34,681 bases of DNA. Origin: Promethearchaeota archaeon (lineage in GTDB: Archaea > Asgardarchaeota > Lokiarchaeia > Sigyniarchaeales > SOKP01). Shown here piece after piece: positions 2,521-24,925 of this stretch (position 1 is the first letter of the stretch; each line of letters starts with the position of its first letter). Below the pieces are notes generated by a model. That model had not been told where the DNA came from, ran no database searches, and was given only the letters and a program-made list of their open reading frames with translations. The DNA lies in the NCBI GenBank assembly GCA_030603385.1, contig JAUVXW010000042.1, positions 1-34,681 on the forward strand. The letters run 5' to 3'. The position numbers and the translations under genes were made by a program.

Positions 2521-3120
2521 CTACATTAAATTGTTTATTACACATTCAGTTAGAGCTTCAAATATCTTTTCCACATTCTGACCTGTTTTTGTTGAGATTT
2601 CGCTATAGCTAGATAAATTAAATTCGTTAGCAATTTCAATTCCCTTTTCTCTCTTTAACTTGCGAGAATCTTCTAAATCAAGTTTGTTACCAATTAACAT
2701 TATTGGAATATCACCAGCTTTTTCTCTTATAATTTGAATCCAATTATATATTTGATCTATCGTTTTAAACTTAGTAATATCAAAAATGATCATAGCAGCA
2801 TTTGCTCCAAGAGTATAAGTTGGTAAGAGGAATCTAAATCTTTCTTCACCTGCTACATCCCAAATTTGTAATTTAATTCTTTTTCCATGTATTTCTACTG
2901 TTTTAACATGAAAATCTACCCCAATGGTTAACTTGTCTTGGGGATCAAAAACATCATAGCAATATCTTTGAGTTAAGTTTCTTTTTCCTACTCCCGGTAG
3001 ACCAACGAGCAAGATTTTAAACGTATAATCATAACTAAAAGGTGGTTTAAAAACAACCTTTCTTTTCTTTCTGGAAATTAGCTTATTCCAGATTTTATAT
3101 AAATTTGAGAATAATTTCAT
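2521..3120 (-). CDS. Rab-like small GTPase with N-terminal amphipathic/basic extension
   Basis: G1 GLPGVGKR, G2 TIGVDF, G3 WDVAGEERF, G4 NKLD, G5 STK; no C-terminal Cys prenylation motif. Confidence 0.9.
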   Translation of the reverse strand: MKLFSNLYKIWNKLISRKKRKVVFKPPFSYDYTFKILLVGLPGVGKRNLTQRYCYDVFDPQDKLTIGVDFHVKTVEIHGKRIKLQIWDVAGEERFRFLLPTYTLGANAAMIIFDITKFKTIDQIYNWIQIIREKAGDIPIMLIGNKLDLEDSRKLKREKGIEIANEFNLSSYSEISTKTGQNVEKIFEALTECVINNLM

Positions 3121-4516: not shown

Positions 4517-5773
4517 TTAACTCAAGTCCTTAATTATATTTGCATTACAGGATTCGCATCTCACTGATTTTCCCTCAAGAAATTTTTTGATTGAAGAATG
4601 TGATATTTTAGAGCCACAATGTGGGCATTTCAAATCATTTAATTTCGCTTTAATTCTTTTTGATAACCATTTTGGAATATCTCTAAAATCATTAAACCAT
4701 TTTGGTAAGTTTTTTATAAAATTTCGATCCTCTAAAAGGGAATTAATTTCTTCTTTATTAAGATATTTCAAGTAATCCTGATTTATTAAATGCTGTACCA
4801 CTGAGGGATACCCACTTGCGAGCCTTAAAGCGATTTCCTCTTTAAATACCTTTTTGGCGAGAGGATCTCCCACTTTTACGAGAGCATTCAATAATGGGAA
4901 TGCTAAATTTCTGTGTAAAATACGAGAGTCGTAATCATTTTCATACCACACTTGGAGATTTGAACAATGCCCCCAAAATTCGATATCAGGAGATAGGTGA
5001 TATTTTCTTGGTTTTCCTCTCTCCATCGAATGATCCAATTTTTCAGCAGCCTCGTCTATTGATTCGATTCCATTATAATCCGTGGTGTTGGTAACAGGAA
5101 TATCTAACAATAGATATTTACATTGCTTAAATAATCTCCCCCCAACATATATGTTTGTATTACCATATTCTAATCTTAGCTTTAGGTGCTTATTGATTAT
5201 GAATTCAGGTCTAGTACTGAGTGGCCTCCCTAATGGTCTTGGAGGAGGTAAAATCTTACATCGTTCAATTATATGTTCTGCCAACTTGTTACAAATTAAT
5301 TCTGGATTTTGGTTAGGTTTTGAAGAGATTTCAGTAAATGCTGAACTATTGTAATTATCTGCTGTTAACATCACTTCCACTCCTGAAACGGCTTGAATCT
5401 CTTCTGAATGATGGTTAAAGGTAAGTAATACTATAGGGATATCCCCTGCTTGTTCTCTAATCATTTGAATAGTGTCATCAATATTATTTCGAAAATTAGA
5501 TTTTGAAATATCAAATATTATTATAGCACCCATGGCACCTCTGTAGTAGATAGGAACTAAAGATCTAAATCTTTCCTCGCTTATCAAATCCCATAATTGC
5601 ATCTTCATAGTTTTTCCGAGCACGCCTAGAGTGTTAACATGGAAATCTACACCAATAGTATATTTATAATCGGTTTTAAAATAACTCTTGCTGAAGCTGC
5701 TTGCGAGATATGCCTTCCCTTCAGTATCATCGCCAATGAGAACTACTTTAACATTATAATCACAATCAGACAT
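4517..5773 (-). CDS. Degenerate Rab-like GTPase fused to FWGHCSN domain and C-terminal Zn ribbon
   Basis: aa ~1-170 Rab-like (TIGVDF, LWDLISEERFR, YYRGA) with broken G1/G3/G4; aa ~190-345 FWGHCSN domain; CPHC...CESC. Confidence 0.85.
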   Translation of the reverse strand: MSDCDYNVKVVLIGDDTEGKAYLASSFSKSYFKTDYKYTIGVDFHVNTLGVLGKTMKMQLWDLISEERFRSLVPIYYRGAMGAIIIFDISKSNFRNNIDDTIQMIREQAGDIPIVLLTFNHHSEEIQAVSGVEVMLTADNYNSSAFTEISSKPNQNPELICNKLAEHIIERCKILPPPRPLGRPLSTRPEFIINKHLKLRLEYGNTNIYVGGRLFKQCKYLLLDIPVTNTTDYNGIESIDEAAEKLDHSMERGKPRKYHLSPDIEFWGHCSNLQVWYENDYDSRILHRNLAFPLLNALVKVGDPLAKKVFKEEIALRLASGYPSVVQHLINQDYLKYLNKEEINSLLEDRNFIKNLPKWFNDFRDIPKWLSKRIKAKLNDLKCPHCGSKISHSSIKKFLEGKSVRCESCNANIIKDLS

Positions 5774-6082
5774 TTTATCAATATATTCATTATTAAGGAA
5801 ATCTGAAAAATATGTTCATTCCTTCTATTAAATCATGAACCGCCCATTTCCCTCTTTCATATTATTAATATAAATATATGAATATAAATTTCTGTCACTC
5901 ATTCTTTATTAAAAATTAACTGCTTTTCATTAAGTAAATAACTCTAAAACTCTATTAAAAATTCGTTAGCTCGCACATTAACCTTGATTTCAGATTATTT
6001 TATTTTTTCAATAATAATTATTCTTTAATATTTGAGAATACTTGGGTTAATCATAGTATAGCAAGCTTTAAAAGAATTTAAA

Positions 6083-7009
6083 ATGCAGCAAACAAGTGGT
6101 ATGAAAAAGAAGAAAATAAAGTGCCCTTTATGTAGTGTTAAATTCATACCTAGATTTTTTCATCGCGAGAAATTGAAATTCGAAGTAAATGCTCCAGTTC
6201 ACATAATAAATAAATTTAAATTAAAGTTTTCAAATGGAGGGTTTCAACCTCCGAATATAGTTAGTCGTTCTTGGGTTACCATTTGTCCCGAATGTAATTA
6301 CATAATTAAATTTGCAGCTGAAATGGGTAAAAAGGAATTTTTAGACCATAATTCGAAATCCATCCTTCACTTACGAGAATTCAAAGAAGATGGAAAGCGT
6401 TATGAATATAAATTTTATAACCTTGAAAAACCCTATAAGGAAGCCCATTATTATAACACAGATCTAATAAAAGCCCTAAAACAGAGGATGTTAAAGGCTT
6501 TAGATGATTTAGATCTATCCAAATGGGGTTTTTTGTATAAGATGTGGAAGACTGATTCTCAGATTGATTCATTTAAATTTTTAATAAGATTTTTAGCTTA
6601 TATAGAGAAATACATTGCATCTCTGAAGATTAAGATTGATCCAGACACCATTATCGCCAAAATTGGGGCATTGTATGTTCCCTACGAATTAAAAGAGAAT
6701 ATAATAAGTCTTATTAGAATTCGAGAAAAAACAATAGGTCAGTATTACGATCTAATTAAAAAAGATGAAGCACTTTTACAAAATACTTATATTGAATTAA
6801 CAATGGAATTAATTTTTCAAGAAATGGTGTCTCTTCATTTAAATAAAGCAAGTATTAAGGAAGATCCCCGTGCTCTAGATAAAGAATTTTATTATTTAGA
6901 ATTGAAAGAGCTACTTCAGAATTATCTAAAGAACACACTGTATATAAGTGAGGACACATCTCTATTTGTAATAACAATGCTTAATCGACTTAAAATAACA
7001 CTAGGCTAG
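6083..7009 (+). CDS. Hypothetical protein with N-terminal CxxC...CxxC and helical C-terminus
   Basis: 308-aa ORF; CPLC and CPEC motifs; no family recognised. Confidence 0.7.
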   Translation: MQQTSGMKKKKIKCPLCSVKFIPRFFHREKLKFEVNAPVHIINKFKLKFSNGGFQPPNIVSRSWVTICPECNYIIKFAAEMGKKEFLDHNSKSILHLREFKEDGKRYEYKFYNLEKPYKEAHYYNTDLIKALKQRMLKALDDLDLSKWGFLYKMWKTDSQIDSFKFLIRFLAYIEKYIASLKIKIDPDTIIAKIGALYVPYELKENIISLIRIREKTIGQYYDLIKKDEALLQNTYIELTMELIFQEMVSLHLNKASIKEDPRALDKEFYYLELKELLQNYLKNTLYISEDTSLFVITMLNRLKITLG

Positions 7010-7305
7010 AGAATTTCTTTATTTTTTTATTAAGAATTTCAAATATGGGGGTTCCACTATCCTCATTAAATCTTGAAAAATTTGAATATACACCCATTAA
7101 TAAGGAAAAATTATCATAGAAACAATTAAAAAATTAGAATTTTTCATTAACATCACTCATTAATTTTGTTAGAATGGATTTGGATCTATATTACTTTATC
7201 CTAATTTGATTTATAAAGATTATGAATTTTGGATTTAATTTTAGAATTGACATAGTTATTCAAGATAATCCATTTAAATATTTGAGAAAATAGGAATAAT
7301 TAGGA

Positions 7306-9228
7306 TTAAGATTTAATTTTGACAGAAACCGTTATTGTTCCCTTTATTGCCCCTCCTCCCCCTCCAGGAGGCTTAAAGATAAATGGATATGGAAAAAATC
7401 CTCCTTCATCATCATCTTTTTTATGTCCACACCACTTACAGACGTCTTGGCCCTTTAGAATCAGTTTTCCACAGTAAGAACATCTCGATTGACTCCTCCG
7501 AATTTGTTCAAAAATCTTCTGTTTAAAAAGTAATTTCTGTTCATCATCTAACTCATCTAAAGGTACATTATTAATAAACCTGTTCCTAATAGCTTCAATA
7601 TAACTCCTTCCTGATATATTGGGGGTACTAAGAGCCTGTCCTTCAAGTTTATTATTTATTATTTGAATACAATCTATAATATCTTCACCTGTTTTTTCAT
7701 CAACTCGTAAGCAAAGACTCTCTAATGTGGTTTTCAGAGTAAATAAAAAGTATGGGTTGTTATGTCTTAAATAAGGTCTAAAAGCGGACATTCTAGGTTT
7801 TATCTGAATAACCGAAAAGAAGATATTTTTACCATCAGGAAGCTTAAGAATTTGTAAAAGAATGTCTTCAAGCAAAGTTGGAAACTTAGAAACACAAGAT
7901 CTTAAAAACTGAGACAACATCTTAGGTTCAGAGGAGAGATTCTTAAGAAGGTCAGTCGACTCCAATATAGTTTTGAATTCTGAGGGACTAAAGACTTGTA
8001 TATATCCTTGAGTAAGGAGATACTGAACTACAGAAGGGTATCCGCTTTCAAGTCTTAGAGCAATTTCTTCTTTATAAACTTTGCTTGCCTTGGGATCTCC
8101 AGCTTTAGTCAATTCTCTTAACAATGGAAATGAAATATTGCTCATTAGAATTCTTGTATCATAATCATGCTCAACCCATGCTTGAATGTTTGAACAATGG
8201 CCCCAAAACTCTTGTTCAGGAGTAATATTATGTCTTTGATTTGGTCCACGCGCGCCCATATGGCCCTCAATAATTCTGTTTTGGTGTATATGGGTACTGT
8301 ACAATTTAGCTGCTTCGTCTATTGAATCAACCTCATCATATAAAGGCACATCATCTTTTGGAATGTTTAGGATTAAACGGATGCATTGAATGAACATCTT
8401 GCCATTTACAAAGATATAAGTCCTTCCATTCACTAACTTGAGCGTGATATATTCATTAATCTTTTTCTCAAGGTTTGAAGGTTTTTTATAATATCTCTGA
8501 TATAAACCACCCTGCACTAATTTAAGTGTCTTTTTCTTTCGTTCTTTTGATTTTTTCTTTAATTTTCGAGCCACTAGTATAACTAAACCTGTAGCTAAAC
8601 CAATCATCCCTAACGCAATTATTAAAATGACAATAAATATTGGTTCAATCTTATCATCATAAGTTAACTTAATAAATGGAACCTCGCTATTACTTGATGC
8701 CCCTTCTTTTGAGTCTCCTTGTATAAATCCATCACCCTCTCCCCCCTTTCCATATAAACACACAGTTATCTCGTCATTGGTAAAGTTTTCTGGTTTGAGA
8801 GGAATATTAAAATCAAAACCATCGCAATAAATATGGCCCCTATATCTCCCTCCACTCGGTTTATTATTCCATGTTATAGTCATCTCATCCCAACTATCAT
8901 ACGTCAGATTTGCTCCAACATGTACCATACTTGAAGCATAATCGAAATACACTACGATAGTTGCCTCTGACCACCCCTTTGGAAGAGAAGAGACGTTAAA
9001 ATGGTAGTAGGCTCTGGCTTCTCCGGAATGATAATTTCCTACACGAAGACGAGTATCATTGCCGTAATTAGTATCTGGAGAATACTCATATACACTCGCA
9101 TCTTTATCAACTCTAATATTTTTAGTATAACCAAAAGCTATTTGAGAAAATGAACTGATCAACAAAAAAAAAATTATAAACACAAGTATAATTATAAAGG
9201 CAACCCTTCTTGTAGTTCGATAATTCAT
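7306..9228 (-). CDS. Receptor-like membrane protein: signal peptide, DNRLRE/CBM96-like extracellular domain, TM helix, FWGHCSN domain, Zn ribbon
   Basis: N-terminal hydrophobic stretch; KDASVY..PDTNYG...L.VG...AYYHFNVS...WDEMTITWNNKP...SKE; TM IFIVILIIALGMIGLATGLVILV followed by poly-Lys; EFWGHCSN; CSYC...CKWC; tail DDDEGGFFPYPFIFKPP. Confidence 0.8.
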   Translation of the reverse strand: MNYRTTRRVAFIIILVFIIFFLLISSFSQIAFGYTKNIRVDKDASVYEYSPDTNYGNDTRLRVGNYHSGEARAYYHFNVSSLPKGWSEATIVVYFDYASSMVHVGANLTYDSWDEMTITWNNKPSGGRYRGHIYCDGFDFNIPLKPENFTNDEITVCLYGKGGEGDGFIQGDSKEGASSNSEVPFIKLTYDDKIEPIFIVILIIALGMIGLATGLVILVARKLKKKSKERKKKTLKLVQGGLYQRYYKKPSNLEKKINEYITLKLVNGRTYIFVNGKMFIQCIRLILNIPKDDVPLYDEVDSIDEAAKLYSTHIHQNRIIEGHMGARGPNQRHNITPEQEFWGHCSNIQAWVEHDYDTRILMSNISFPLLRELTKAGDPKASKVYKEEIALRLESGYPSVVQYLLTQGYIQVFSPSEFKTILESTDLLKNLSSEPKMLSQFLRSCVSKFPTLLEDILLQILKLPDGKNIFFSVIQIKPRMSAFRPYLRHNNPYFLFTLKTTLESLCLRVDEKTGEDIIDCIQIINNKLEGQALSTPNISGRSYIEAIRNRFINNVPLDELDDEQKLLFKQKIFEQIRRSQSRCSYCGKLILKGQDVCKWCGHKKDDDEGGFFPYPFIFKPPGGGGGAIKGTITVSVKIKS

Positions 9229-9328
9229 TTTTAAGACAATAACAGTATGATTGGATTTTTCACTTTCACAAATTACAAATATTCACTTACTGATTTAAAT
9301 ATTGATGATCATGCCCCGGGTATAAATA

Positions 9329-9709
9329 CTATCTTTTTATTATTTCTGCTATTTCACGTGCAGCACGCTCACATTCAAGAAAAATAAGACCCAATTTTGC
9401 CTTATCTGTAGTAGAAACCGCTAACACGGCATAGTCAGCTTCAAAAACCAATAAATACCCCTCAATCCCTTTGATATACAACTGCTTGAATTCGCCAATT
9501 TTCATTTCAATGACAGCTCTTTCAGATAAGGAAAGCAACGTAGCAACCATAGCAGAAATTATCGTTTCATTAAATCCTCGGGGGATTAATGAGAGAATTG
9601 GGAGTCCTTCAATTGATGAAATTGTTGCAATTGTAATACTAGGATTATTTGATAATAACCTTTTTAAAATTCTTTCTAACTCCTCTAGGAAATTATTTTC
9701 TTCAGGCAT
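9329..9709 (-). CDS. Roadblock/LC7 (MglB/LAMTOR-like) protein
   Basis: SIEGLPI...ISAMVATLLSLSERAVIEMKIGEFKQLYIKG...AKLGLIF typical roadblock pattern. Confidence 0.9.
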   Translation of the reverse strand: MPEENNFLEELERILKRLLSNNPSITIATISSIEGLPILSLIPRGFNETIISAMVATLLSLSERAVIEMKIGEFKQLYIKGIEGYLLVFEADYAVLAVSTTDKAKLGLIFLECERAAREIAEIIKR

Positions 9710-9937
9710 TTTATATTATAGTTATTTTTTTTGAAACTCATAAAATATATTTTAAAAAAATCCTAAGTCATATGGGTTACATTTTTAATGAATTCTTTTA
9801 GCTATACTATTTAATTTAGCAATTTGCTTACGATCTATAGGTAAATCCTTATTTGGATTATTTTTTCTCAGCAGTTTGATTAAATCTTGACAAAGATCTA
9901 AGAGAAAAACTATATCATAATTGAAAAAAAAGGGATT

Positions 9938-10366
9938 TTAATTCAATTTTAGCTTTTTACCCATTTCATACCAATTTATTATGGAAAGCTGTTCTATCTT
10001 TTCAAAATGATCTTTATTTCGCGTATAGAAAATTTCATTATTTGCAAGACATATACTAGCAATTAATTCATCCATAGTCCCAATGGGACTTCCTCTCTTC
10101 TTTAAATCTGCTGAAATCTTTGCATACTCTTGAATTGCTTTTTCATTAAAATCTAAAATATTATTAAGTGATTCAATAAGATTTCTAACTTTTAGTAAAC
10201 CTTTTGCGACATTTCTCATAGCGTAACACCCTTTATATAATTCTGCAACATTAAATACCGTTGTTTTTAAGCTTTCTTGTTGTTTTTTCAAATCCTGAAA
10301 AACTTCATACGCATTATCTCTACCCCTTAAAAAAGCAATAATTAAGTCTGAATCAAGTACTACCAT
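9938..10366 (-). CDS. vapC: VapC PIN-domain toxin
   Basis: VLDSDLII, NVAELYKG, GTMDELIA, TRNKDHF. Confidence 0.9.
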   Translation of the reverse strand: MVVLDSDLIIAFLRGRDNAYEVFQDLKKQQESLKTTVFNVAELYKGCYAMRNVAKGLLKVRNLIESLNNILDFNEKAIQEYAKISADLKKRGSPIGTMDELIASICLANNEIFYTRNKDHFEKIEQLSIINWYEMGKKLKLN

Positions 10367-10369
10367 TAT

Positions 10370-10603
10370 CTATTCTCCCTTGAATCGTGCTGGCTTTTTA
10401 CGATCTTCGTAAATATCCTCCAAAATGCGATCCCACTCATCATCCTCTTTTAAACTACCCGCAAGCTTTTCTAGATTTTTCTTTCTCACATGTTTTTCTT
10501 GTAATAACCGGTTGATGAGTTCAGGAAAGGATTCTCCTTTACGTTTTTGTTTTTTTAACGCATTGTATACATCTTCAGGTAATGAAATAGTTTTTTGTGT
10601 CAT
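10370..10603 (-). CDS. vapB: VapB-type antitoxin
   Basis: KTISLPEDVYNALKKQKRKGESFPELINRLL; ends 3 bp upstream of vapC. Confidence 0.85.
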   Translation of the reverse strand: MTQKTISLPEDVYNALKKQKRKGESFPELINRLLQEKHVRKKNLEKLAGSLKEDDEWDRILEDIYEDRKKPARFKGE

Positions 10604-10838
10604 TATAGAAATATAGATGTAAATTATATTTATAATTTTATAAAATCTTAAATTTTTGGTTCAAACCATCTCCCCTTAGAAGAGGCTTCCTTGGTACTCT
10701 TAAAAAACGTTTTAAGTGATAACATAAATTATTTCTAACGCATTAAATAATTACATCCAGTGGATAAGCTGATAGTTTAGAAATAAAAACAATACTGATA
10801 ATTAAGTATTGGACTCCTAATTTTTTTTTAAGATACAT

Positions 10839-11690
10839 ATGCAAAATTATATTATTAGGATGAAAAACAAAAATGTAGAAAATATGAGTCAATCTTCAAA
10901 AATATTTAATTTATCCGTCTTGAAATCAATACTTCTTGTGTTTGGAGCTTATATGTTTAGCTATTGTTTGGGTCTCATATTTCACGAAATCGGACATGCT
11001 CTCGCTTACACGATAGTAGGTGTTACTGATATAGAAATACATGTTCATCCGTTTGCATTATCTCATTGTTCCTCTGGCTTACGTCCCACAGAAGTACTGC
11101 CGTTTACGGGGAGTATGGGACCACTTTTTAATGTAGTCTGTGCAACTATTGTCTCTCTCTCATTATGGCGTATACGGAATCCTAAACTCTTACCTCTATT
11201 AATGTGGGCTGGAACAGCATACATTGCTGAAGGTGTGGCAATGTTTATGGATATTGCGGGATTACCCATTTTAACAGATTGGGGAAAAGTAATTATTATC
11301 GGTGGTGTATCACCCGTTATTATCGGAATTATGGGTATTGTCTTTATAACTATAGGGAGTATATTTATGCTCCTTCTATTACCTTTGGAAAACATTTCTC
11401 ATCGTGATTTATTCTGGAGAAGATACCTAATAACAACATCTATCTCGGTTTATTTCCTATTATCAGTCATTTATACCTCTATATTTGCTTTAAATGTGTT
11501 GGATAATAGATTAATTGCCTTTTTTTCCTCAATTGTATTCAGTCTTTTGCTTACAGCAATATATAAGCCCATCTTTCCATTTTTAGATCGATTATCCCAT
11601 ACGGAAAGGTCTCCGATAAGCTGGTCTGTAGTTACAATCGCTTGCGGATCAGCTCTAGGTATTATAATCATTGTTTTAGTCTTTTTTTAA
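10839..11690 (+). CDS. Membrane metallopeptidase, M50-like (true start possibly 10884)
   Basis: HEIGH (HExxH) in a TM helix, GPLFN and later TDW; many hydrophobic segments. Confidence 0.75.
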   Translation: MQNYIIRMKNKNVENMSQSSKIFNLSVLKSILLVFGAYMFSYCLGLIFHEIGHALAYTIVGVTDIEIHVHPFALSHCSSGLRPTEVLPFTGSMGPLFNVVCATIVSLSLWRIRNPKLLPLLMWAGTAYIAEGVAMFMDIAGLPILTDWGKVIIIGGVSPVIIGIMGIVFITIGSIFMLLLLPLENISHRDLFWRRYLITTSISVYFLLSVIYTSIFALNVLDNRLIAFFSSIVFSLLLTAIYKPIFPFLDRLSHTERSPISWSVVTIACGSALGIIIIVLVFF

Positions 11691-11893
11691 TAAAATTGAG
11701 GTCGGATTGTAGTTAATGGGCAACTATTGATGCCCCTTCAAACTATAACTAAATGCTTAATTCTTAAATTAAAGAAATAAAGAGCTTTATCCACTAATCA
11801 CTCCTCCAAATTTAAAGGACCATAAAAAAAGAATTATCTAACCTATTCAAAAATAAAAAAAAAAAGAATTTAATATTGTTAAATAAAGTTTCT

Positions 11894-14818: not shown

Positions 14819-15179
14819 TTAATTTTTCCTCATTTTTTTTTAAACAGTATTAAAGCGTTAAAAATACCTTAATACTATGTTTCAACTCTTTGATTTTTTT
14901 GTTTAAATATAGATTTCAAAGCAAGTTATAATTTGATCCCTCTCTATATAAATATTTACATCTTTGTAAATTGATATCATTGACTAAAATTTAAGGTACG
15001 ATAATAACTCAAGAGAAAACTTTCTTGAACATTTCCAGCTTAGAATTATCTCTTGACCTATAATTGAGCAAAAAAATATTATAAAAATAATTTTTAAAAG
15101 TGAAATCTAACCTACCTGAATACTACACGACTTATTGAGGGAAAGCAATTTTTAAGAAGAAATCGTAAGATGATTTTCT

Positions 15180-15875
15180 TCACCCAGGATACTTATCAAT
15201 GGCTTTTCGTATCTTCTCTGCAGCGCTATGTGGATTTTTCGCACGTGTAATTCCTCCACCTACTATAATAATATCCAATGGATAAGTTAATAGCTTCGGA
15301 ATGTCGGTTACACGAATGCCACCAGCTACCGCTAATTTTGGATGTTCTCTTAACCGCACTACAGATTCTAATTCTAAAAAAGGGGTTCGTCGTGATGCTT
15401 GGCGATCTAAGCCACTATGTACGAGAGTATAATGTAATTTTGTTTCTTCATAATTAAGGTCTATAAGGGCTGCTAATCTGATAACTTGTGATCGGCACGT
15501 GATAAGATCTGCCATAATCTCAACGTTAAAATCATGCGCAGCACGTAAAGCCTCTATGATTGTAATATCGTAAGCATCGGCTAGAACTGTAACAATATCT
15601 GCTTTCGCTTTAGCTGCCATCTTTACCTCAAGGTATCCCGCATCTGCCGTTTTTAAATCTGCACAAACCAACTTGTCTGGGTGTGCATCTTTTAACGCTT
15701 GAATAGCTCGTACACCTTCGGATTTTATTAACGGCGTTCCGGCTTCCAAAATGTCAACAAAAGGAGCCACTTCCCTCGATATCGCCAGTGCATCATCCAA
15801 GGTCTCAAAGTCCAATGCCACTTGTAACCGAGGCTTTTGTTTCTCTTTTTTATGTGTCTGTTCCAAATCTATCAT
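15180..15875 (-). CDS. hxlA: 3-hexulose-6-phosphate synthase (OMPDC/HUMPS family)
   Basis: LQVALD, EAGTPLIKSEG, ADLKTADAG, VHSGLDRQ, VAGGI, VGGGIT. Confidence 0.8.
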   Translation of the reverse strand: MIDLEQTHKKEKQKPRLQVALDFETLDDALAISREVAPFVDILEAGTPLIKSEGVRAIQALKDAHPDKLVCADLKTADAGYLEVKMAAKAKADIVTVLADAYDITIIEALRAAHDFNVEIMADLITCRSQVIRLAALIDLNYEETKLHYTLVHSGLDRQASRRTPFLELESVVRLREHPKLAVAGGIRVTDIPKLLTYPLDIIIVGGGITRAKNPHSAAEKIRKAIDKYPG

Positions 15876-16117
15876 AATTCATTTCTATTATGTGAAAGTC
15901 TTAGGATAAATGAGAAAGTCTTACTATAAATAGATGCTACATTATTGTTATTTTTTTAGACAAAATGTTCCTCTTTTTTTACTATCTTTTATTAAATAAA
16001 ATCTTCACATATACGAGAAAAACAGAAAATGGTATTCCAAAAGAAAGCTTTCTTAAGCATAAAGCCGTGCGAATTTTTTAATTATCTTTAAATATTTCAT
16101 TTTACATTATAATAATA

Positions 16118-16306
16118 ATGAGTACTGAAAAAATTAAAGACCAAATCATTTCATTTATAAAATCACTTCCAGAGGATGTAACATTAGAAGATATCATGTA
16201 TCATTTATACGTTAGGGAAAAAATTTTTCGTGGTTTAAAGGATGCCGATGAAGGTAAAAAAGTATCAAATGAAAATGCTAAAGAAATTATCGAAAAATGG
16301 TTCTAA
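16118..16306 (+). CDS. Putative antitoxin of RelE/ParE pair
   Basis: LPEDVTLEDIMYHLYVREKI..GLKD..EGK; overlaps the toxin start. Confidence 0.75.
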   Translation: MSTEKIKDQIISFIKSLPEDVTLEDIMYHLYVREKIFRGLKDADEGKKVSNENAKEIIEKWF

Positions 16307-16581
16307 TAGAATGGACTGATCGCTCTTTAGAAGACCTAAACGAGATACATGATTATATAGCTCGTGATTCAAAAAATTATGCAAATCTTTTTGTTAAGAA
16401 AATTTACGAGACTGTCCAAAAATTAAAGGATTTTCCAAATATTGGTAGAGTAGTCCCCGAAGTTAGTAATTCCTCCGTAAGAGAAGTTATTTTTCAAAAT
16501 TATCGGATTATATATAGAAAGATGAATAAGTACGTTGAGATTATTACAATAATTCACGGGAGTCGTTTATTAAGAATATGA
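16297..16581 (+). CDS. RelE/ParE family toxin
   Basis: WT..S.EDL.EI.DYIARDS...FPNIGRVVPE...YRIIYR...IIHGSR. Confidence 0.9.
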   Translation: MVLIEWTDRSLEDLNEIHDYIARDSKNYANLFVKKIYETVQKLKDFPNIGRVVPEVSNSSVREVIFQNYRIIYRKMNKYVEIITIIHGSRLLRI

Positions 16582-16759
16582 TTCTACCACAGTATTTAGC
16601 GTCCTTATTCATTAATTCTCATTCAAAAAAACATTAACTAGGTAAATCTGTTGCAGAGGTTTGTGACACTCATAAAAACTATATTATTAAACATTATTTA
16701 GGAGATAAATTTTATTTAACTAAAGAAAATAAAGGTGCAAGATTATATCTTATATTTAT

Positions 16760-17401
16760 ATGAAATCCTTAGAACATAAGGCAGAGAAGTATGATAAGGG
16801 AATCAAGTCAATTACATTAGGAAAATTACCTAAAATAAAACAATTCATTGTAGATAACTATCTCAATGAAGGTGAAAAAATATTAGATATAGGAATGGGA
16901 ACAGGCACATTCGCAATTTTAGCTGTGCAAAAAGGAGTGAGAGTTACAGGAATAGATATTTCTGAAAAAATGTTAAAGGTTGCGAAAAATAAAATTACTC
17001 AGGAAAATTTGTCTGAACAAATCGAAATAATTAAAATGCCTGTAATAGATATGGATGAAAAATTTAAGAATAAATCCTTCGATAAAGTCGTAGCAACCCT
17101 CTCTTTCAGTGAATTTTATCAAAAAGAACAAGATTTTTGTTTAACTCAAATTAATAGAGTTTTAAAAAATAATGGAGAATTTATTATACTTGATGAGGTT
17201 AAACCAAAAATTATTTGGAAGAAAATCCTGTATTTTTTTGTTAGGATTCCACTTGCTTTTATTAATTTCCTTAAAGCACATGTCTCAACTTCATCTTTAA
17301 AAAATTTTGATGAAAAATTAGAAGCATATAATTTTTTGATTTTAGAAGAACATTTGTATCTATTAGATACGTTGAAATTAGTTAGAGCAAAAAAAAACTG
17401 A
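16760..17401 (+). CDS. Class I SAM-dependent methyltransferase, corrinoid-protein-associated (CpaM-like)
   Basis: ILDIGMGTG, VTGIDIS, FDKVVA...FSE; ends 8 bp upstream of the HgcAB-like gene. Confidence 0.85.
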   Translation: MKSLEHKAEKYDKGIKSITLGKLPKIKQFIVDNYLNEGEKILDIGMGTGTFAILAVQKGVRVTGIDISEKMLKVAKNKITQENLSEQIEIIKMPVIDMDEKFKNKSFDKVVATLSFSEFYQKEQDFCLTQINRVLKNNGEFIILDEVKPKIIWKKILYFFVRIPLAFINFLKAHVSTSSLKNFDEKLEAYNFLILEEHLYLLDTLKLVRAKKN

Positions 17402-17409
17402 GAACTAAA

Positions 17410-18501
17410 ATGAGTGTTAAAGAAAAATTAAAATTATTTGGCGGGTATTTTTTTAGATGGATCGGCTTTCCAGTGGAACCGGATGTCAATAAAATTGGAA
17501 ATCCAACAAACGAGAGCCCGGTTTTTCTAACTTGTAATTTCAATATCACGGTAAAAAGAGTTTTAAAAGCATTAAAAGGACTTAATTGTTATTTATTGGT
17601 TGCGCCTTCAAGAGGCATAAATGTATGGTGTGGAGCCTGTGGAGATGATTTCCATACTGATTCAATTTTATCAATAATTAAAACAAGTGGGATCAACGCG
17701 CTTGTTTCTCATAGAACCCTAATTTTACCTCAGTTAAGTGCCCCTGGAATAGATACTGTAATCATAAAGAATAAAACGGGATGGAATGTAAAGTTTGGAC
17801 CAGTATACGCTAAAGATATTCCTGAATATATTAAAAATAATTGTCAAAAAACTGAAGAACAACGAAAAATAAGATTTCCCTTGTCAAAAAGAGCTGAAAT
17901 GGCTAATTTATATTTCTTTATGTTATTCATTTTTCTTACGGGTATTTATTGGGTAGTCTCTATTTTCTTAAATTTTTTGGATTTAATACTCTATATAAAT
18001 AGTACATTAATCATCACTGTAATAATATACGGGTCTCTGATAATATTGCCAAGCATCTCCACAAAAACAGGAAAAATGAAGGTATTTATTTACCAACTTA
18101 TCATTTTATCTATTATTATAATTCTCTATGTTTTTCAGATATACAATACCTTCTTTCTAATCTGGAGTATTATTTTATCAAGTTTAATAGTTCTAATTGT
18201 TGCTGAGGACTTTAATGGACTAACTCCAACTTACAAAAGTGAATTAGGAGAAAGATTGTGGAATAAAGGTAATAAAACTTTTAAATTCCTTTTTGGAGAA
18301 TATAAATTACAACCCTATGGACAAATTAACCTTGAAAGAGATAAATGTTTAGGTTGTAATGTGTGTATTGATGTTTGTCCTAGAAATTTGTATAGTTTTA
18401 ATGAAGAAGATAAAAAAGTAGATCTTAATAATCCTGATAAATGTATTAATTGTAATGCTTGTGTCAAACGATGTTTAGCTCAATGTTTGAATATATCATA
18501 A
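17410..18501 (+). CDS. Fused HgcAB-like protein (corrinoid domain, TM helices, 2x[4Fe-4S] ferredoxin)
   Basis: SPVFLTCNF, GINVWCGACG, SHRTLILPQL.APG, GW.VKFGPVYAKDIPEY; about 4 TM helices; CLGCNVCIDVCP and CINCNACVKRC. Confidence 0.85.
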   Translation: MSVKEKLKLFGGYFFRWIGFPVEPDVNKIGNPTNESPVFLTCNFNITVKRVLKALKGLNCYLLVAPSRGINVWCGACGDDFHTDSILSIIKTSGINALVSHRTLILPQLSAPGIDTVIIKNKTGWNVKFGPVYAKDIPEYIKNNCQKTEEQRKIRFPLSKRAEMANLYFFMLFIFLTGIYWVVSIFLNFLDLILYINSTLIITVIIYGSLIILPSISTKTGKMKVFIYQLIILSIIIILYVFQIYNTFFLIWSIILSSLIVLIVAEDFNGLTPTYKSELGERLWNKGNKTFKFLFGEYKLQPYGQINLERDKCLGCNVCIDVCPRNLYSFNEEDKKVDLNNPDKCINCNACVKRCLAQCLNIS

Positions 18502-18592
18502 CACATATAATGTATTTGGGAAAATTGTGAGTCTCTTGTACATTTTTCTAATAATTATTGGAATTATTACTTTTTTCATTTTAATATTTTGA

Positions 18593-18655
18593 GTATGATA
18601 ATGTATGCAAGAATCGTATGCTAGGATTTAAAAATAGGTGAAAATATTGAATGAT
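18593..18655 (+). repeat. 63-bp direct repeat copy B (orphan fragment of ORF 2236..2442)
   Basis: Matches 2394-2456; no upstream part of the ORF here. Confidence 0.85.
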
Positions 18656-18897
18656 TTCAATTGGACCCTTAATTAAAGAACTTAGGGATCATCTTTTATA
18701 CATAATTCATGTGATACTAAATGTATTATATTCGCATGATTTAAACTCCAAAATCCATTAAAACCTTAGCAAATTTTTGCTTACATAAACGTATTAGATT
18801 GGTAGGAAGGGATAATACCGACAATATTTAAAGAAAACAAACGCTAATACTCTTAAACTATTTTGTAGCTTCTTCTAAAATCGCTTCACACATTTAA

Positions 18898-19170
18898 TTA
18901 AGCAGGTTTAATTAATCTAAACAAATTCTGTGCGAGTTTTTTAATAATTGGAACATGCCCTTCCGTTAGAAGTTGATCCTGAAATAAGATTGCTGGCGGG
19001 ATTAAATCCCCAAATTTTTTTTTGGTATCACTCGAATAAACATCCTCATAGCTCACCTCGATCTTTTCTTTAAATTCTGGTATCGATGCAAACATCCGCT
19101 CGATAATGTTTACTGTTTTGCAACATTTAGCACAATAGTTTTCTTCTTCATTTTTTAATAAAACATGCAT
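18898..19170 (-). CDS. Small thioredoxin-fold protein
   Basis: CAKC, ...PPAILFQDQLL.EGHVP typical of small thioredoxin-like proteins. Confidence 0.65.
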   Translation of the reverse strand: MHVLLKNEEENYCAKCCKTVNIIERMFASIPEFKEKIEVSYEDVYSSDTKKKFGDLIPPAILFQDQLLTEGHVPIIKKLAQNLFRLIKPA

Positions 19171-19520
19171 AACTAGTTTTGATATTATATATCACTTTAC
19201 CCTAATATTTCCTTTAAACTTAAACTATTAAATATTTTATCTAATATATGATTTCTGAAAACTCTCCTCTCTATCTTTTTTTAACTAAGTGGAATTTGAA
19301 ATATATAAATGTATAATCTGCTAAGTTGGCATTAACAAATACCATGAATTTTATTATGTTAAATGGAAAAAGTTTAGCTACATTTATTAACATTAGAACC
19401 TTAATCCTAACAATGTGTATCTCATTACTTTACCACTCTATTAATTAACGGAGTAAAAAATATCCATATAACATGCTTATTAATATGAGATAATGTAATT
19501 TTAAAAACCAGGTAAATAGA

Positions 19521-19889
19521 ATGACGCTAGATATAACTCTAAATTCTTTATATATATGTGTCAAGAATATGGACCGTGCAATCAAGTTTTATGAAAACTT
19601 TTTTGAACAACCCGTTTTTAAAAAGGATAAAATTCTCAGCATTTTTAATATAAAAGGTTTTAGGTTTTGCCTCTTTAATAATGGTGAAGTGAATGAAAAT
19701 GTTACTTGGGGAGATAATTGTTTGCCAAGCTTTGAAGTTAATGATATAAATAAAGAAATTGAAAAACTCAAGATATTAGATAGAGAAATAGTATTTCCTC
19801 TCACAAAAATACGTGATAATTGGGTTTTAGAATTTAAAGATACTGAAGGCAATGATATAGAAGTTTATAGCAAAATAAATAATATATAG
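19521..19889 (+). CDS. VOC/glyoxalase family protein
   Basis: VKNMDRAIKFYE, SFEVNDI, FKDTEGNDIE. Confidence 0.9.
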   Translation: MTLDITLNSLYICVKNMDRAIKFYENFFEQPVFKKDKILSIFNIKGFRFCLFNNGEVNENVTWGDNCLPSFEVNDINKEIEKLKILDREIVFPLTKIRDNWVLEFKDTEGNDIEVYSKINNI

Positions 19890-19939
19890 AATTTAATATC
19901 AGTCTTTCTTACTTATTAAAGGATGAAAGAGTTAACTGA
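19884..19939 (+). repeat. MKELTD repeat copy R1 (upstream region plus first ~5 codons)
   Basis: Matches 30472-30527 with 2 mismatches. Confidence 0.85.
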
Positions 19940-19964
19940 GATTTCTATTTTGAAATTCATATAT

Positions 19965-20750
19965 TTACACAATTCCTGAATTAGCAAGCATTAATCTTGT
20001 TAATGCTTCGAAAGTTTCTTCTACATTCTCACCTGTTCTCGGACTACACTCTGCAAAACCATCTACACCTCTTGATTTTGCGATTTTAATTCCTTCTTCT
20101 GCTGAGATTTGCCGTTCTTCTTCGAATTCTGGTACTATTCCCACAACAAGAATGGGAAAAATGTCTTCTTGTCTTATTTCTTTTCTAATCACCATCAGCC
20201 AATCATCTATATGGACAAGTGAACTAAAATTATTAACATCATAAATGAATAAAGCTCCATTAGCTCCTCTAACATAAGTAGGAAATAAAAATCTAAATCT
20301 TTCTTCCCCACCAAAATCCCAAATTTGTAATTTAATCCTTTTATCATAAACCTTTAGACTCTTGACTTCAAAATCGACGCCTATTGTCATTTTTGAATCT
20401 GATTTAAACAAATTAGTTAAAAATCTTTGAAATAATTGTGTCTTTTCTACTCCAGGATCACCGAGTAGTACAACTTTATATGTAGCATCATAGAATCCCC
20501 CATAATGTGATCTATAAACTATATCTTTAATTACTCTTGGTTTTTTTTTAATCAGTTTTTTTGCGATAGGAACCTTTTCTTTTTTAGGATATTTTTTTTT
20601 AGAGATTTTAATACTACCAGGTATATCCTCATTAAAAGATTTAAGTGTTTTATATAAAGGCTCATAAATAAACTCTGATGGAATGTATCTTAACTGCCTT
20701 TTTTTCCTCCACTTTCTTAATAATCCCATTTCTATGCAGAAATTCTCCAT
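19965..20750 (-). CDS. Rab-like GTPase with long basic N-terminal extension (alternative start 20729, MGLLRKWRKKR)
   Basis: GDPGVEKT, TIGVDF, WDFGGEERF; G4 replaced by GIVPE; SPRTG. Confidence 0.85.
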   Translation of the reverse strand: MENFCIEMGLLRKWRKKRQLRYIPSEFIYEPLYKTLKSFNEDIPGSIKISKKKYPKKEKVPIAKKLIKKKPRVIKDIVYRSHYGGFYDATYKVVLLGDPGVEKTQLFQRFLTNLFKSDSKMTIGVDFEVKSLKVYDKRIKLQIWDFGGEERFRFLFPTYVRGANGALFIYDVNNFSSLVHIDDWLMVIRKEIRQEDIFPILVVGIVPEFEEERQISAEEGIKIAKSRGVDGFAECSPRTGENVEETFEALTRLMLANSGIV

Positions 20751-20963
20751 TTATAAATACTAAAATTAAACATCTTCAAGTCAGGATTCAATTTCTTTTC
20801 CTTCTAATTTTATTAACAAATTTAACCATTTAAATTTTACATTATTGTCATACTTATTTCTATATACTTCTTAGCATACTTTGGGATTATAGTTGTGTAA
20901 TCACGGGACAAGTCTTTCTAAGTGTGGATTGAGCAAATTTCCTCGCGAAGTTTTAAGAAATTT

Positions 20964-21135
20964 TTTAATATCATCCCTTCTTACTTATTAAACGATGAAA
21001 GAGTTAACCGATACAGAAATCCAATGGTTAGAGGCATTTACCAAAAACCATGAATTTTTCGCATCCTTCCTGCTCCATTACAAATTAAAACTGCATTTAT
21101 CGAATAATCAATATTATTGGCTTCTACATTATTGA
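20964..21135 (+). repeat. MKELTD repeat copy R2 with 46-codon ORF 20995..21135
   Basis: MKELTDTEIQWLEAFTKNHEFFASFLLHYKLKLHLSNNQYYWLLHY*; about 140 bp near-identical to 30480-30619. Confidence 0.85.
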
Positions 21136-21222
21136 TAGTGTAATTATTTAAAAAAATTACAAAAAAAAACTGTTGAGTTTCCTCCGCTTTTTTTTCTCTC
21201 TAACATAAGTCTGATTTCAGGC

Positions 21223-22476
21223 TTACTCTTCTTTAAAAATACTTGTATAACAGTATTCACATCTGATTAATTGACCTTGAAGAAATCGTTGAATCAAAGA
21301 TTCTTGTATTTTTGTGCTACAATAATGACATTTTAGATTTTTTAATCTCGCTTTAATTTTATCAGAGAACCATTTCGGAATATTTTTAAAATTATTAAAC
21401 CATTTTGATAAGTTTCCTATAAATTTTGGATTTTCTAAAATGAAATTCATTTCTTTGCTATTTAAATATTTCAAATAACCTTGGTTTATTAAATATATAA
21501 CCACAGAAGGATAACCGCTTTCGAGCCTAAGTGCAATTTCTTCTTTAAATACCTTTCTTGCAAGAGAATCTCCTACTTCTACAAGAGCCTTCAACAATGT
21601 GAATGCTAAATTTCTGTGTAAAATACGTGTATCGTAATCATTTTCATACCACGCTTGTAAATTAGAGCAATGCCCCCAAAATTCGGTATCAGGAGATAAG
21701 TAATGTTTTTTTAACCTGCCTGGTTCCATTGAAGAATCTAACTCTTCTGCAGCCTCATCAATAGATTCAATTTCATCATAATCTCTAATTCTATCATTAG
21801 GGATGTTTAACAACAAGAATTTACATTGATTAAACAGCTTTCCTCCAACATATATATTAGTTTTAGCGCTTTTTAATTTAAGTTCTAGATGCTTATTTAC
21901 TTTGAATTCAAGTCCACTAATGCGTTCTGGTTTAATTAATCCTTGCCTGATTTTTGAGGTGTGGGGCTGAAACATCGAGTGAAGAACCAAATTAAATAAT
22001 GCTTCAATATTCTCTCCTGTTTTACCCGAAACTTCCAGGAATCCACTAAATTTACTATCCTTTGATACCTGGAGCCCTTCATCATAGGAGATGTTGCGAG
22101 ATTCTTCCAAATCTAATTTATTTCCAGCTAATACTATTGGGATATCTCCTGCGTTTTCTCTCATTATTTGACTCCAATCAGAAAGGTGGTTGAGTGTATT
22201 TCGATTCGTAATATCATAAAGAAAAATTGCCCCATTTGACCCCTTACAATATTGTGATAGTAAAAATCTAAAACGCTCTTCGCCTCCGAAATCCCAGATC
22301 TGCATCTTCACCTTTTCCTCCTCAAAATTGACGATCTTAGAGTAAAAATCAATGCCAATAGTTAGCTTAAGATCTTTTATAAAAAACCCAGTAAAATATT
22401 TATTAATTAAGGCGGTTTTTTGGGAAGACTCTTCTCCTAAAACCATAATTTTAAAGGTATAATCGTAATCCATCAT
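21223..22476 (-). CDS. Rab-like GTPase fused to FWGHCSN domain and C-terminal Zn ribbon (paralog of 4517..5773)
   Basis: GEESSQKT (degenerate G1), TIGIDF, WDFGGEERF, GNKLD, SGKTG; EFWGHCSNLQAW; CHYC...CEYC. Confidence 0.9.
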   Translation of the reverse strand: MMDYDYTFKIMVLGEESSQKTALINKYFTGFFIKDLKLTIGIDFYSKIVNFEEEKVKMQIWDFGGEERFRFLLSQYCKGSNGAIFLYDITNRNTLNHLSDWSQIMRENAGDIPIVLAGNKLDLEESRNISYDEGLQVSKDSKFSGFLEVSGKTGENIEALFNLVLHSMFQPHTSKIRQGLIKPERISGLEFKVNKHLELKLKSAKTNIYVGGKLFNQCKFLLLNIPNDRIRDYDEIESIDEAAEELDSSMEPGRLKKHYLSPDTEFWGHCSNLQAWYENDYDTRILHRNLAFTLLKALVEVGDSLARKVFKEEIALRLESGYPSVVIYLINQGYLKYLNSKEMNFILENPKFIGNLSKWFNNFKNIPKWFSDKIKARLKNLKCHYCSTKIQESLIQRFLQGQLIRCEYCYTSIFKEE

Positions 22477-23067: not shown

Positions 23068-23304
23068 ATGACCAAATTAAAAGTTGGACCTAAAGGACAA
23101 GTTACCTTGATAAAAAAAATAAGAGAGAAATTTGGCATAGAACCAGGTTCACTTATCGAGGAAATCGAAGTTGAAGATGGTATATTAATAAAACCTATAG
23201 AATCTTCATTTAAAAAATGGAAGAGGCTTAAAGAGAACGTAAGTAAGAAATGGCCTTCAGGGATTTCTTCTGTACAAGCGATTCAAGAGGATCGAACAAA
23301 ATGA
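23068..23304 (+). CDS. AbrB/MazE/SpoVT family antitoxin
   Basis: KVGPKGQVTL.KKIREKFGIEPG. Confidence 0.9.
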   Translation: MTKLKVGPKGQVTLIKKIREKFGIEPGSLIEEIEVEDGILIKPIESSFKKWKRLKENVSKKWPSGISSVQAIQEDRTK

Positions 23305-23717
23305 AAGACATAATTGTAGATTCTAATGTCTTTATTGCATCTTTAATAAAAAATGATAAATTTCACCAGAACAGCCTTAGTATTATTGAAAGGATGGAAA
23401 ATGGTGAATTAAATTTTCATGTATCTATGATAACCCCTATTGAAATATGCTGTGCCATTGCAAGGAGAGTGGGAATAAAAGAAGCAAAGGAAAGTCAAGA
23501 AATAATCCAAAATTGGGTTAAAGAGAAAAAAATTAATATTCACGAACTGAATAAAAAGAGAATGCTTGAAGCTCAAAATCGCGGAATCAATTTTAAATTA
23601 AAGGGAATGGATGCAATCATAGTTCAATTAGCATTTGAATTAAATTTCCCATTAATCACTTTCGACAATGAAATTATTGAAAGAACAAAAGATATCCAAT
23701 TTTTTGAATCATCTTAA
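23301..23717 (+). CDS. vapC: VapC PIN-domain toxin (start set to ATG 23301, ATGA overlap with antitoxin stop)
   Basis: IIVDSNVFI, PIEI, GMDAI, LITFDNE. Confidence 0.88.
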   Translation: MKDIIVDSNVFIASLIKNDKFHQNSLSIIERMENGELNFHVSMITPIEICCAIARRVGIKEAKESQEIIQNWVKEKKINIHELNKKRMLEAQNRGINFKLKGMDAIIVQLAFELNFPLITFDNEIIERTKDIQFFESS

Positions 23718-24523: not shown

Positions 24524-24925
24524 ATGAAAAGTATATTTTTAGATACAGGGATTTTTGAATTATTTTTTAGTGGTAATCAAACCATCAAAAAGATTTTCAA
24601 CCAAATAAAAAATGAAACCATTCAAGCATTTACATTAGAATTAAATTTATGTGAGATTTTTTATAAGACATGTGAAAAATTAGGCAAAGAAACCGCCCAA
24701 ATTAGAAATATTTCTCTTAGAAACAGTAAAATAAAAATTCTTGATATAAATGACCAATTAACAATAAGATCTGGAATTTTTAAATGTAAATATCCTCAAA
24801 TATTATCACTAGTAGATGCTTATATAAGTGGTTGTGCAGATCTAAACAATTTAATAATTTATTCTACAGATCCTGGGCTTAAAGATATAAAAGAAGTTAA
24901 AAATAATATTTTTCCTTTGGATTAA
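24524..24925 (+). CDS. vapC: VapC PIN-domain toxin
   Basis: IFLDTG, NLCEIFY, LSLVDAY, YSTD. Confidence 0.88.
   Translation: MKSIFLDTGIFELFFSGNQTIKKIFNQIKNETIQAFTLELNLCEIFYKTCEKLGKETAQIRNISLRNSKIKILDINDQLTIRSGIFKCKYPQILSLVDAYISGCADLNNLIIYSTDPGLKDIKEVKNNIFPLD

Follow-up and report, generated by a model that had tools for sequence, protein, structure and literature searches.

On the minus strand of contig JAUVXW010000042.1 from a Promethearchaeota archaeon (assembly GCA_030603385.1), three genes encode proteins in which the same stretch of about 160 amino acids (aa) follows either a Ras-like GTPase domain or a putative membrane sensor, which raises the question of what this shared stretch is and with which partners it is used. 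The whole stretch of DNA analyzed, 34,681 nucleotides long and referred to as the window, is AT-rich (about 30% GC), and homologs of its proteins are labeled Promethearchaeota or Lokiarchaeia. The shared stretch of the three proteins P0001, P0002 and P0003, named DOM here, is a real, previously undescribed protein domain that is confined to one Lokiarchaeial family, apart from a few genomes of a sister family and one other family. In the subfamily to which P0002 belongs, its genes are linked to Roadblock and Ras-like genes; this linkage is real but subfamily-specific.

A domain shared by three proteins of the window

The three open reading frames (ORFs) had been singled out in a reading of the sequence made without database searches (the original prediction). 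Their coordinates on the minus strand proved right, and the motif string quoted for the domain was reproduced in the alignment, in which 100 or more columns are invariant among the three proteins. In a search of the whole genome with the domain of P0001, the DOM of P0003 was found to be 72% identical (E 2e-75) and that of P0002 50% identical (E 2e-46). All three proteins also end in the expected CxxC...CxxC ribbon, with the CxxC pairs at residues 383/406 in P0001, 383/406 in P0003 and 583/597 in P0002. The two knuckles thus lie 10-25 residues apart, as in zinc (Zn) ribbons, and metal binding is putative; the Pfam Zn-ribbon matches at the three C-termini fall below the cutoff. The two proteins with a Ras-like half are composed as follows:

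4517..5773, minus strand: P0001, 418 aa; Ras-like pseudo-GTPase, DOM and Zn ribbon
5270..5749, minus strand: Ras-like domain of P0001 (Pfam Ras, 3.8e-29; G1, G3 and G4 degenerate)
4730..5215, minus strand: DOM of P0001, residues 187-348 (alignment and genome search)
4547..4627, minus strand: Zn ribbon of P0001, CPHC...CESC (CxxC scan; weak Zn-ribbon Pfam and NCBIfam matches)
21223..22476, minus strand: P0003, 417 aa; Ras-like GTPase, DOM and Zn ribbon
21433..21918, minus strand: DOM of P0003, residues 187-348 (alignment and genome search)
21250..21330, minus strand: Zn ribbon of P0003, CHYC...CEYC (CxxC scan)

That the domain is uncharacterized, as had been assumed, was borne out by every search made. 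No credible model was obtained in Pfam (down to E 1), NCBIfam, PADLOC or PHROGs, and weak RQC and EF-hand lines on DOM repeat proteins were without any passing stretch in Pfam. A profile search against the sequences of the PDB returned de novo designed helical proteins only. Predicted models of DOM gave no specific match to the PDB with Foldseek (E >= 0.7) or in an exhaustive VIA fold search (best Z 3.9), while the ESM Atlas returned Asgard proteins only in the fold search and no usable match in the feature search. Full-text literature searches yielded no description of the domain, and to our knowledge none of the papain-like, TBC and HEPN motifs fits it.

At 90% identity the family falls into 2,755 clusters (near-length band), and at 50% identity it has 2,504 representatives. 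A survey of 301 genomes from the phylum detected DOM in 63 of the 68 genomes of the window's own family, in 3 of 7 of the sister family and in 1 of 21 of one other family, but in none of the remaining ~200 Asgard genomes searched. This restricted distribution argues that DOM is a lineage innovation and not the ancestor of a eukaryotic system. Among 83 diverse representatives the domain is joined to LRR in 28, to Ras in 8 and to TPR in 8, and longer proteins add WD40, Ras-DOM-TPR-LRR, Orc/Cdc6 AAA+, JAB, ParB, CDC48_N with Ras, and Rad51-like partners. DOM usually stands at the extreme N-terminus or straight after a Ras domain. The expected modularity is thereby documented, as is the statement in the original prediction that similar segments occur in Lokiarchaeal LRR proteins.

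A family so rich in repeats and prone to pseudogenes might be read as a fast-evolving repertoire of non-self or conflict receptors, an archaeal analog of NLR/LRR proteins in which DOM would be the shared signaling head and the Roadblock/Ras link a side branch. First-look candidates number 8-74 per genome, with LRR, TPR, WD40 and AAA+ partners; the genome studied here (3.9 Mb) holds 15 DOM ORFs including fragments, beside about 55 Ras-like and 23-28 Roadblock ORFs. In-frame stops occur in 17 of the 150 best genomic DOM matches in relatives and, together with DOM fragments, suggest frequent pseudogenization or rapid turnover in the family; fragments and a split Ras/DOM pair in this genome (G000) are located at C3:2953-3162, C4:23138-23902, C39:62777-62995 and C5:19169-19291. 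Four divergent DOM proteins (38-44% identity) with the core motifs kept are encoded on IMG/VR contigs of 93-112 kb (L145-L148) that are classed as viral and may be Asgard viruses, proviruses or misclassified host DNA. PIN and ParE toxin genes are also abundant in the window. However, PADLOC gave no match of note, the annotated neighbors in the nine most recurrent clusters are, besides Roadblock/Ras, housekeeping rather than defense genes, and DOM is unusually conserved for a protein in an arms race. The central NTPase that NLR/STAND proteins carry between head and repeats is missing: most DOM-LRR proteins have no NTPase domain, and a few bear Orc/Cdc6 AAA+ or Ras in place of a STAND NTPase. 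A receptor repertoire is regarded as quite improbable.

Conservation and predicted fold of DOM

Residues 180-418 of P0001 were modeled with AlphaFold2 (AF2) from a 138-row alignment, with a mean pLDDT (predicted local distance difference test) of 80.7. The model places a four-strand beta-meander first, followed by a poorly modeled stretch that carries the invariant SID motif, the long FWGHCSN helix and then helical repeats. Mapping with a local hidden Markov model identified the final ~60 aa of the ~160-aa domain as the first copy of a three-helix unit that forms a tandem array in many relatives, so that the unique part of DOM is a head of ~100 aa. This head consists of the beta-meander, the SIDEAA segment and the FWGHCSN helix, which is conserved on every face. 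When the C-terminal part and the following repeats were compared with ARM/HEAT folds, only weak similarity to designed ARM and PUF proteins (Foldseek E 0.03-2) and to generic helical bundles (VIA Z <= 9.4) was obtained.

Conservation was computed over 380 unique full-length domains and is given in P0001 numbering. Twenty positions are 95-100% conserved: N194, Y209, C218, S238, D240, E265, F266, H269, C270, S271, N272, Q274, W276, Y281, F292, G302, D303, A306, E313 and R317. Within this set C218 reaches 98.9%, H269 98.7% and C270 96.8%, the last being replaced mainly by Ser (9 cases); S238 and D240 reach 99.5%, and S271, N272, Q274, W276 and Y281 lie at 97-99.5%. The pattern makes a Cys/His functional center in DOM plausible, which would be a candidate for metal binding or catalysis, as the original prediction had suggested. 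A four-ligand Zn site of C218, H269, C270 and H287 was considered as one form of it. Since H287 is conserved in only 88% of the domains and is Met throughout the P0002-type clade, a simple site of this kind is not supported.

These residues are also the starting point for reading DOM as an enzymatic or cofactor-binding effector, in which a buried center of C218, H269 and C270 with S238, D240, E265 and N272 would perform thiol chemistry or bind a metal. Ubiquitin-like ligase, peptidase or acyl transferase activity would be candidate chemistries, and the fused LRR, TPR, WD40 or Ras parts would determine the target or turn the activity on and off, in parallel to LRR-NEL ligases and TIR-LRR receptors. 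Besides the near-invariance of the ten Cys, His, Ser, Asp, Asn, Gln, Trp and Tyr positions from C218 to Y281 (96.8-99.5%), the FWGHCSN helix with its conservation on all faces is what would be expected of a buried functional core, and a constant N-terminal domain followed by variable repeats is the layout of effector-bearing receptors. JAB and CDC48_N fusions hint at a ubiquitin-like context, yet they are single cases. The searches described above revealed no likeness to folds or profiles of known hydrolases, ligases or metal sites, the Cys lies in the middle of a helix in the model, whereas papain-like enzymes have theirs at the N-terminal end of a helix, and the candidate fourth ligand is the less conserved H287. 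Taken together, an effector of this type is considered somewhat unlikely.

Linkage of P0002-type genes to Roadblock and Ras-like genes

P0002 differs from the two Ras fusions at both ends. Its parts, the Roadblock gene that precedes it and the two free Ras-like genes of the window are:

7306..9228, minus strand: P0002, receptor-type DOM protein, 640 aa
8821..9120, minus strand: CBM96/DNRLRE-like extracellular domain of P0002, residues 37-136 (Pfam CBM96, 1.1e-15; NCBIfam DNRLRE_dom, 1.3e-15)
8566..8655, minus strand: second hydrophobic (transmembrane, TM) segment of P0002, residues 192-221 (hydropathy scan), followed by a Lys/Arg-rich stretch
7948..8481, minus strand: DOM of P0002, residues 250-427 (alignment and genome search)
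7489..7947, minus strand: P0002-type-specific helical tail, residues 428-580 (alignment A4; helices in the AF2 model)
7429..7482, minus strand: Zn ribbon of P0002, CSYC...CKWC, residues 583-600
7309..7419, minus strand: conserved C-terminal motif of P0002-type proteins, residues 604-640 (near-invariant across 20 orthologs)
9329..9709, minus strand: Roadblock/LC7 protein P0004, 126 aa (Pfam Robl_LC7, 3.3e-8, 33.6 bits)
19965..20750, minus strand: Ras-like protein, 261 aa, 470 bp downstream of P0003 (Pfam Ras, 1.9e-39; G4 lost, GIVPE)
2521..3120, minus strand: Ras-like protein, 199 aa, downstream of P0001 (Pfam Ras, 7.6e-47; G1 GLPGVGKR)

From N- to C-terminus, P0002 thus comprises a hydrophobic anchor (residues 4-34), the CBM96/DNRLRE ectodomain, a TM helix, DOM, the helical tail, the Zn ribbon and the C-terminal motif. 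The ectodomain scored 58.3 bits against CBM96 (cutoff 26) and 57.9 bits against DNRLRE (cutoff 34), which assigns it to these families; carbohydrate binding is putative. Its position between the two hydrophobic segments, the second of which is followed by a basic stretch, fits a placement outside the membrane. The original prediction held that the three proteins differ only in their N-terminal input. The Ras and CBM96/TM N-termini are indeed as described, but P0002 also has its own helical tail of ~155 aa and, at the C-terminus, a conserved extension of 37 aa, both absent from P0001 and P0003. In fold searches the tail gave generic helical-repeat or bundle matches only (Z <= 9.4). Beyond the ribbon, the C-terminus of every P0002-type protein, whether membrane-bound or soluble, is formed by an acidic run, an aromatic/Pro stretch resembling FFPYPFIFKPP, a Gly run and a short strand, nearly invariant in sequence. 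No known match to this C-terminal motif was found; it could be a membrane-insertion or docking motif.

A search with P0002 identified 26 P0002-type genes in species-representative genomes, either long forms with the CBM96-TM input or short forms that start just before DOM. As half of the subfamily has no CBM96-TM part, the extracellular sensor is dispensable. A quick maximum-likelihood tree groups all P0002-type DOMs in a single clade (SH-aLRT 98), within which long and short forms are intermixed, and places the Ras-DOM fusions in a second clade (92). Two DOM subfamilies are represented in the window. A paralog at L040:205-3273 shares the CBM96 ectodomain and TM segment of P0002 (66% identity to its residues 1-267) and has no DOM; its cytoplasmic part differs, with extra TM segments and TPR-like repeats, so the sensor module has been shuffled between outputs.

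As had been claimed, a Roadblock gene lies 100 bp upstream of the receptor-type gene on the same strand. Its product, P0004, was assigned to Roadblock/LC7 by a Robl_LC7 match above the cutoff of 23 bits. P0004-like Roadblock genes were located at most 450 bp upstream and on the same strand in 14 of the 26 P0002-type genes, each in another species and with long as well as short forms; the upstream P0004 orthologs in these 14 species share 47-83% identity. In one further species, such a gene lies 2 kb upstream. The P0002 clade is thus marked by a conserved two-gene unit, usually with Ras-like genes alongside. A small Ras-like gene directly follows the P0002-type gene in L018, L022 and L036 and lies further downstream in L024, L026, L029 and L031. 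Orthologs of the Ras-like protein encoded at 19965-20750 adjoin P0002-type or Ras-DOM genes in L018, L024, L026, L029 and L031.

In the flanks of P0002-type genes, the densities per 10 kb are 1.61 for Roadblock, 0.57 for Ras and 0.23 for Ras-DOM genes; in the flanks of Ras-DOM genes they are 0.56 for Roadblock and 0.83 for Ras genes. The corresponding background values of this genome are 0.059 for Roadblock, 0.141 for Ras and 0.039 for Ras-DOM genes. Around P0002-type genes this amounts to a 27-fold enrichment of Roadblock and a 4-fold enrichment of Ras, calculated from loci that had been chosen through DOM. Unbiased clustering of 905 neighboring ORFs returned Roadblock/Ras as the sole specific neighbor family. 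Because of the way in which the loci had been chosen, the search was repeated from the Roadblock side. Among 41 genomes of the family, close P0004 orthologs (>= 67% identity) were present in three, and the gene that follows is P0002 in its own genome, a short P0002-type gene in G150 and a Ras gene in G132. The ubiquitous Roadblock paralog of 47-60% identity has neither a P0002-type nor a Ras neighbor. P0004 is a dedicated paralog that travels with P0002-type genes.

The other subfamilies show a different picture. Roadblock genes near LRR-type DOM genes are limited to one syntenic ortholog group, at a distance of 2-5 kb and on the other strand. In the Ras-DOM subfamily of P0003, 4 of 34 ORFs have a Roadblock gene upstream, which are 3 independent cases, as two of the ORFs stem from copies of the same contig. 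A conserved linkage in other Lokiarchaeia, which the original prediction would have required, was found for Roadblock with the receptor-type protein in 14 species; for Ras-like genes and Ras-DOM fusions it is weaker. That the three proteins of the window belong to one pathway, as had been proposed, is not supported by any of these results; P0003 lies 12 kb away, in the subfamily with the three independent Roadblock cases.

The repeated and specific pairing with Roadblock and Ras-like switches argues for signaling, and thereby against DOM being a localization or structural domain that tethers diverse proteins to the membrane, cytoskeleton or envelope, with no part in signaling and with Roadblock adjacency reflecting shared regulation only. 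Such a general targeting tag would suit the fusions to domains as unrelated as Orc/Cdc6, ParB, Rad51-like, JAB, Ras and LRR, and conservation across paralogs would suit one invariant target. However, neither an amphipathic nor a lipid-binding feature was identified in DOM, and a mere tether is very unlikely.

The Ras-like halves were assigned to Pfam Ras (PF00071, cutoff 21.6 bits) with 101.8 bits for P0001 and 136 bits (1.1e-39) for P0003 and were compared with the canonical motifs G1 GxxxxGK[ST], G3 DxxG and G4 NKxD. P0001 has GDDTEGKA at G1, WDLISEE at G3 and TFNHH at G4; as all three are degenerate, it is best called a pseudo-GTPase. P0003 has the canonical G3 and G4 with an unusual G1 (GEESSQKT) and hence departs from the full canonical set. 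Among 92 Ras-DOM homologs switch I (TIGVDF) is retained, with G1, G3 and G4 having mostly degenerated. Deviations also occur in both Ras-like genes of the window that stand free of DOM and in most Ras-like neighbors in related loci: every Ras-like protein in and around these clusters (2521-3120, 4517-5773, 19965-20750, 21223-22476; L018, L022, L036) departs at G1, G3 or G4, and several have no NKxD altogether while switch I is kept. Judged from the motifs, this suggests pseudo-GTPases or an altered nucleotide specificity.

Further genes were observed around the pair. In eight related loci a gene combining winged-helix, coiled-coil and Roadblock parts lies divergently upstream of the Roadblock/P0002-type pair (L018:2087-2974, L021:807-1658, L022:6210-6797 and five further loci; minus strand), a hint that the output may be transcriptional. 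This window lacks the gene and has a PIN gene (9938-10366) in its place. Three PIN-domain genes and one ParE toxin gene are scattered over the window in total (9938-10366, 16297-16581, 23250-23717 and 24524-24925), as is typical of a variable genome region. Two plus-strand ORFs that flank P0004/P0002, 6083-7009 (308 aa) and 10839-11690 (283 aa), have no family match and no counterpart in related loci.

A possible switch unit and its relation to known systems

Combining these observations, DOM may act as a constant docking or signaling head, with the P0002-type protein, Roadblock and a Ras-like protein forming a membrane-proximal switch unit. DOM would couple variable sensor or switch domains (LRR, TPR, WD40, Ras-like and often pseudo-GTPases, Orc/Cdc6 AAA+, the CBM96 membrane sensor) to a common partner. 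The P0002-type protein would place the Roadblock/Ras unit at the membrane, and Roadblock would most likely serve as platform or regulator for the Ras-like partner, by analogy with MglB-MglA and Ragulator-Rag; candidates for this partner are a small Ras-like protein encoded nearby and the Ras part of a Ras-DOM fusion, for instance P0001. The direction of signaling in this scheme is inferred. We put the scheme forward tentatively, as a quite possible account if not a probable one.

Several observations weigh against it. About 17 near-invariant polar or aromatic residues exceed what a docking domain usually needs and suggest a ligand, metal or active site, and the segment with S238 and D240 was modeled with low confidence in both AF2 runs. 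The Roadblock link is found in one subfamily, is rare in Ras-DOM fusions and is absent from LRR forms except for the one syntenic ortholog group. P0004-type Roadblocks are patchy, occurring in 3 of the 41 family genomes, and the enrichment figures are open to ascertainment bias because most loci were fetched for holding DOM genes. Physical interaction, finally, is inferred; a complex prediction of the cytoplasmic part of P0002 (A4) with P0004 (A5) scored 0.00, below the mark, in a run without controls that weighs neither way.

A bolder version would make DOM a catalytic or metal-dependent signaling head built on the invariant Cys...Ser-x-Asp...His-Cys-Ser-Asn core, in a fold without match among the solved structures searched. 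It would be used in the manner of eukaryotic TIR, NEL and F-box heads, arm receptors of the LRR, TPR and WD40 types under the control of Ras-like and Roadblock switches, with the P0002 operon as a membrane glycan-sensing input. In our judgment this is unlikely.

Roadblock proteins act as platforms for GTPase activation (GAP, GTPase-activating protein) or nucleotide exchange (GEF, guanine nucleotide exchange factor). As in MglB-MglA and Ragulator (LAMTOR)-Rag, a small Roadblock/LC7 gene stands beside Ras-superfamily genes here, and a membrane-proximal partner could anchor the unit; the role of P0004 as GTPase regulator is putative and suggested by gene linkage. Unlike in these systems, the gene paired with Roadblock encodes no GTPase domain and bears DOM, a helical tail and a Zn ribbon, and the neighboring Ras-like proteins are mostly without canonical G1, G3 or G4.

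With ROCO proteins (LRR-Roc-COR) the family shares a Ras/Roc-like domain followed by a constant non-GTPase domain and the presence of LRRs; P0178 even combines Ras, DOM, TPR and LRR in a single chain, and Pfam Roc also matches the G domains. However, the domains are arranged in another order, and DOM is in most cases not joined to a GTPase. The COR profile gave no match down to E 0.1 in P0001 and P0003 or down to E 1 in the DOM segment alone, which sets the family apart from ROCO proteins, and no Roc-COR structure was listed in the fold comparison of DOM, which by itself weighs neither way. TIR-LRR proteins, LRR-NEL ligases and F-box proteins likewise combine one small conserved domain with variable LRR, WD40 or TPR arms in large paralogous families with signs of turnover. 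This likeness is architectural only, as DOM has no relation in sequence or fold to TIR, NEL or F-box.

Closest in organism are the Asgard Roadblock/longin-GTPase proteins, with which the theme of expanded Rab-like GTPases and Roadblock partners is shared (Tran et al., 2024, PMC10933270; Liu et al., 2020, doi 10.1101/2020.10.19.343400). In the accessible parts of these two sources, GTPases fused to 'various domains of unknown function' are drawn (PMC10933270) and an operon of LAMTOR1-like, Rab-like and DENN genes is described (Liu et al., 2020), a gene set that differs from the one found here; DOM, its LRR forms and the operon of Roadblock and P0002-type genes are neither named nor analyzed in those parts. 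Asgard LRR proteins are referred to as 'of unknown function' in a further source (doi 10.64898/2026.10.28.762692), the accessible portion of which contains no description of DOM or its Roadblock operon.

Asgard LRR proteins and the many small GTPases have repeatedly been noted as expanded yet functionally opaque. In one Lokiarchaeial family a large share of the LRR, TPR and Ras proteins bears one extremely conserved, unannotated domain, for which a dedicated Roadblock partner and Ras-like neighbors provide a genetic handle. A vague class of 'hypothetical proteins' thereby becomes a defined target for structure, metal and interaction work, and a test case for how GTPase/Roadblock signaling became connected with membrane sensors in the prokaryotes most closely related to eukaryotes. 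Compared with the systems above, small-GTPase/Roadblock signaling as such is of a known kind, whereas DOM itself, a family-restricted domain with a subfamily-specific Roadblock/Ras linkage, is new.

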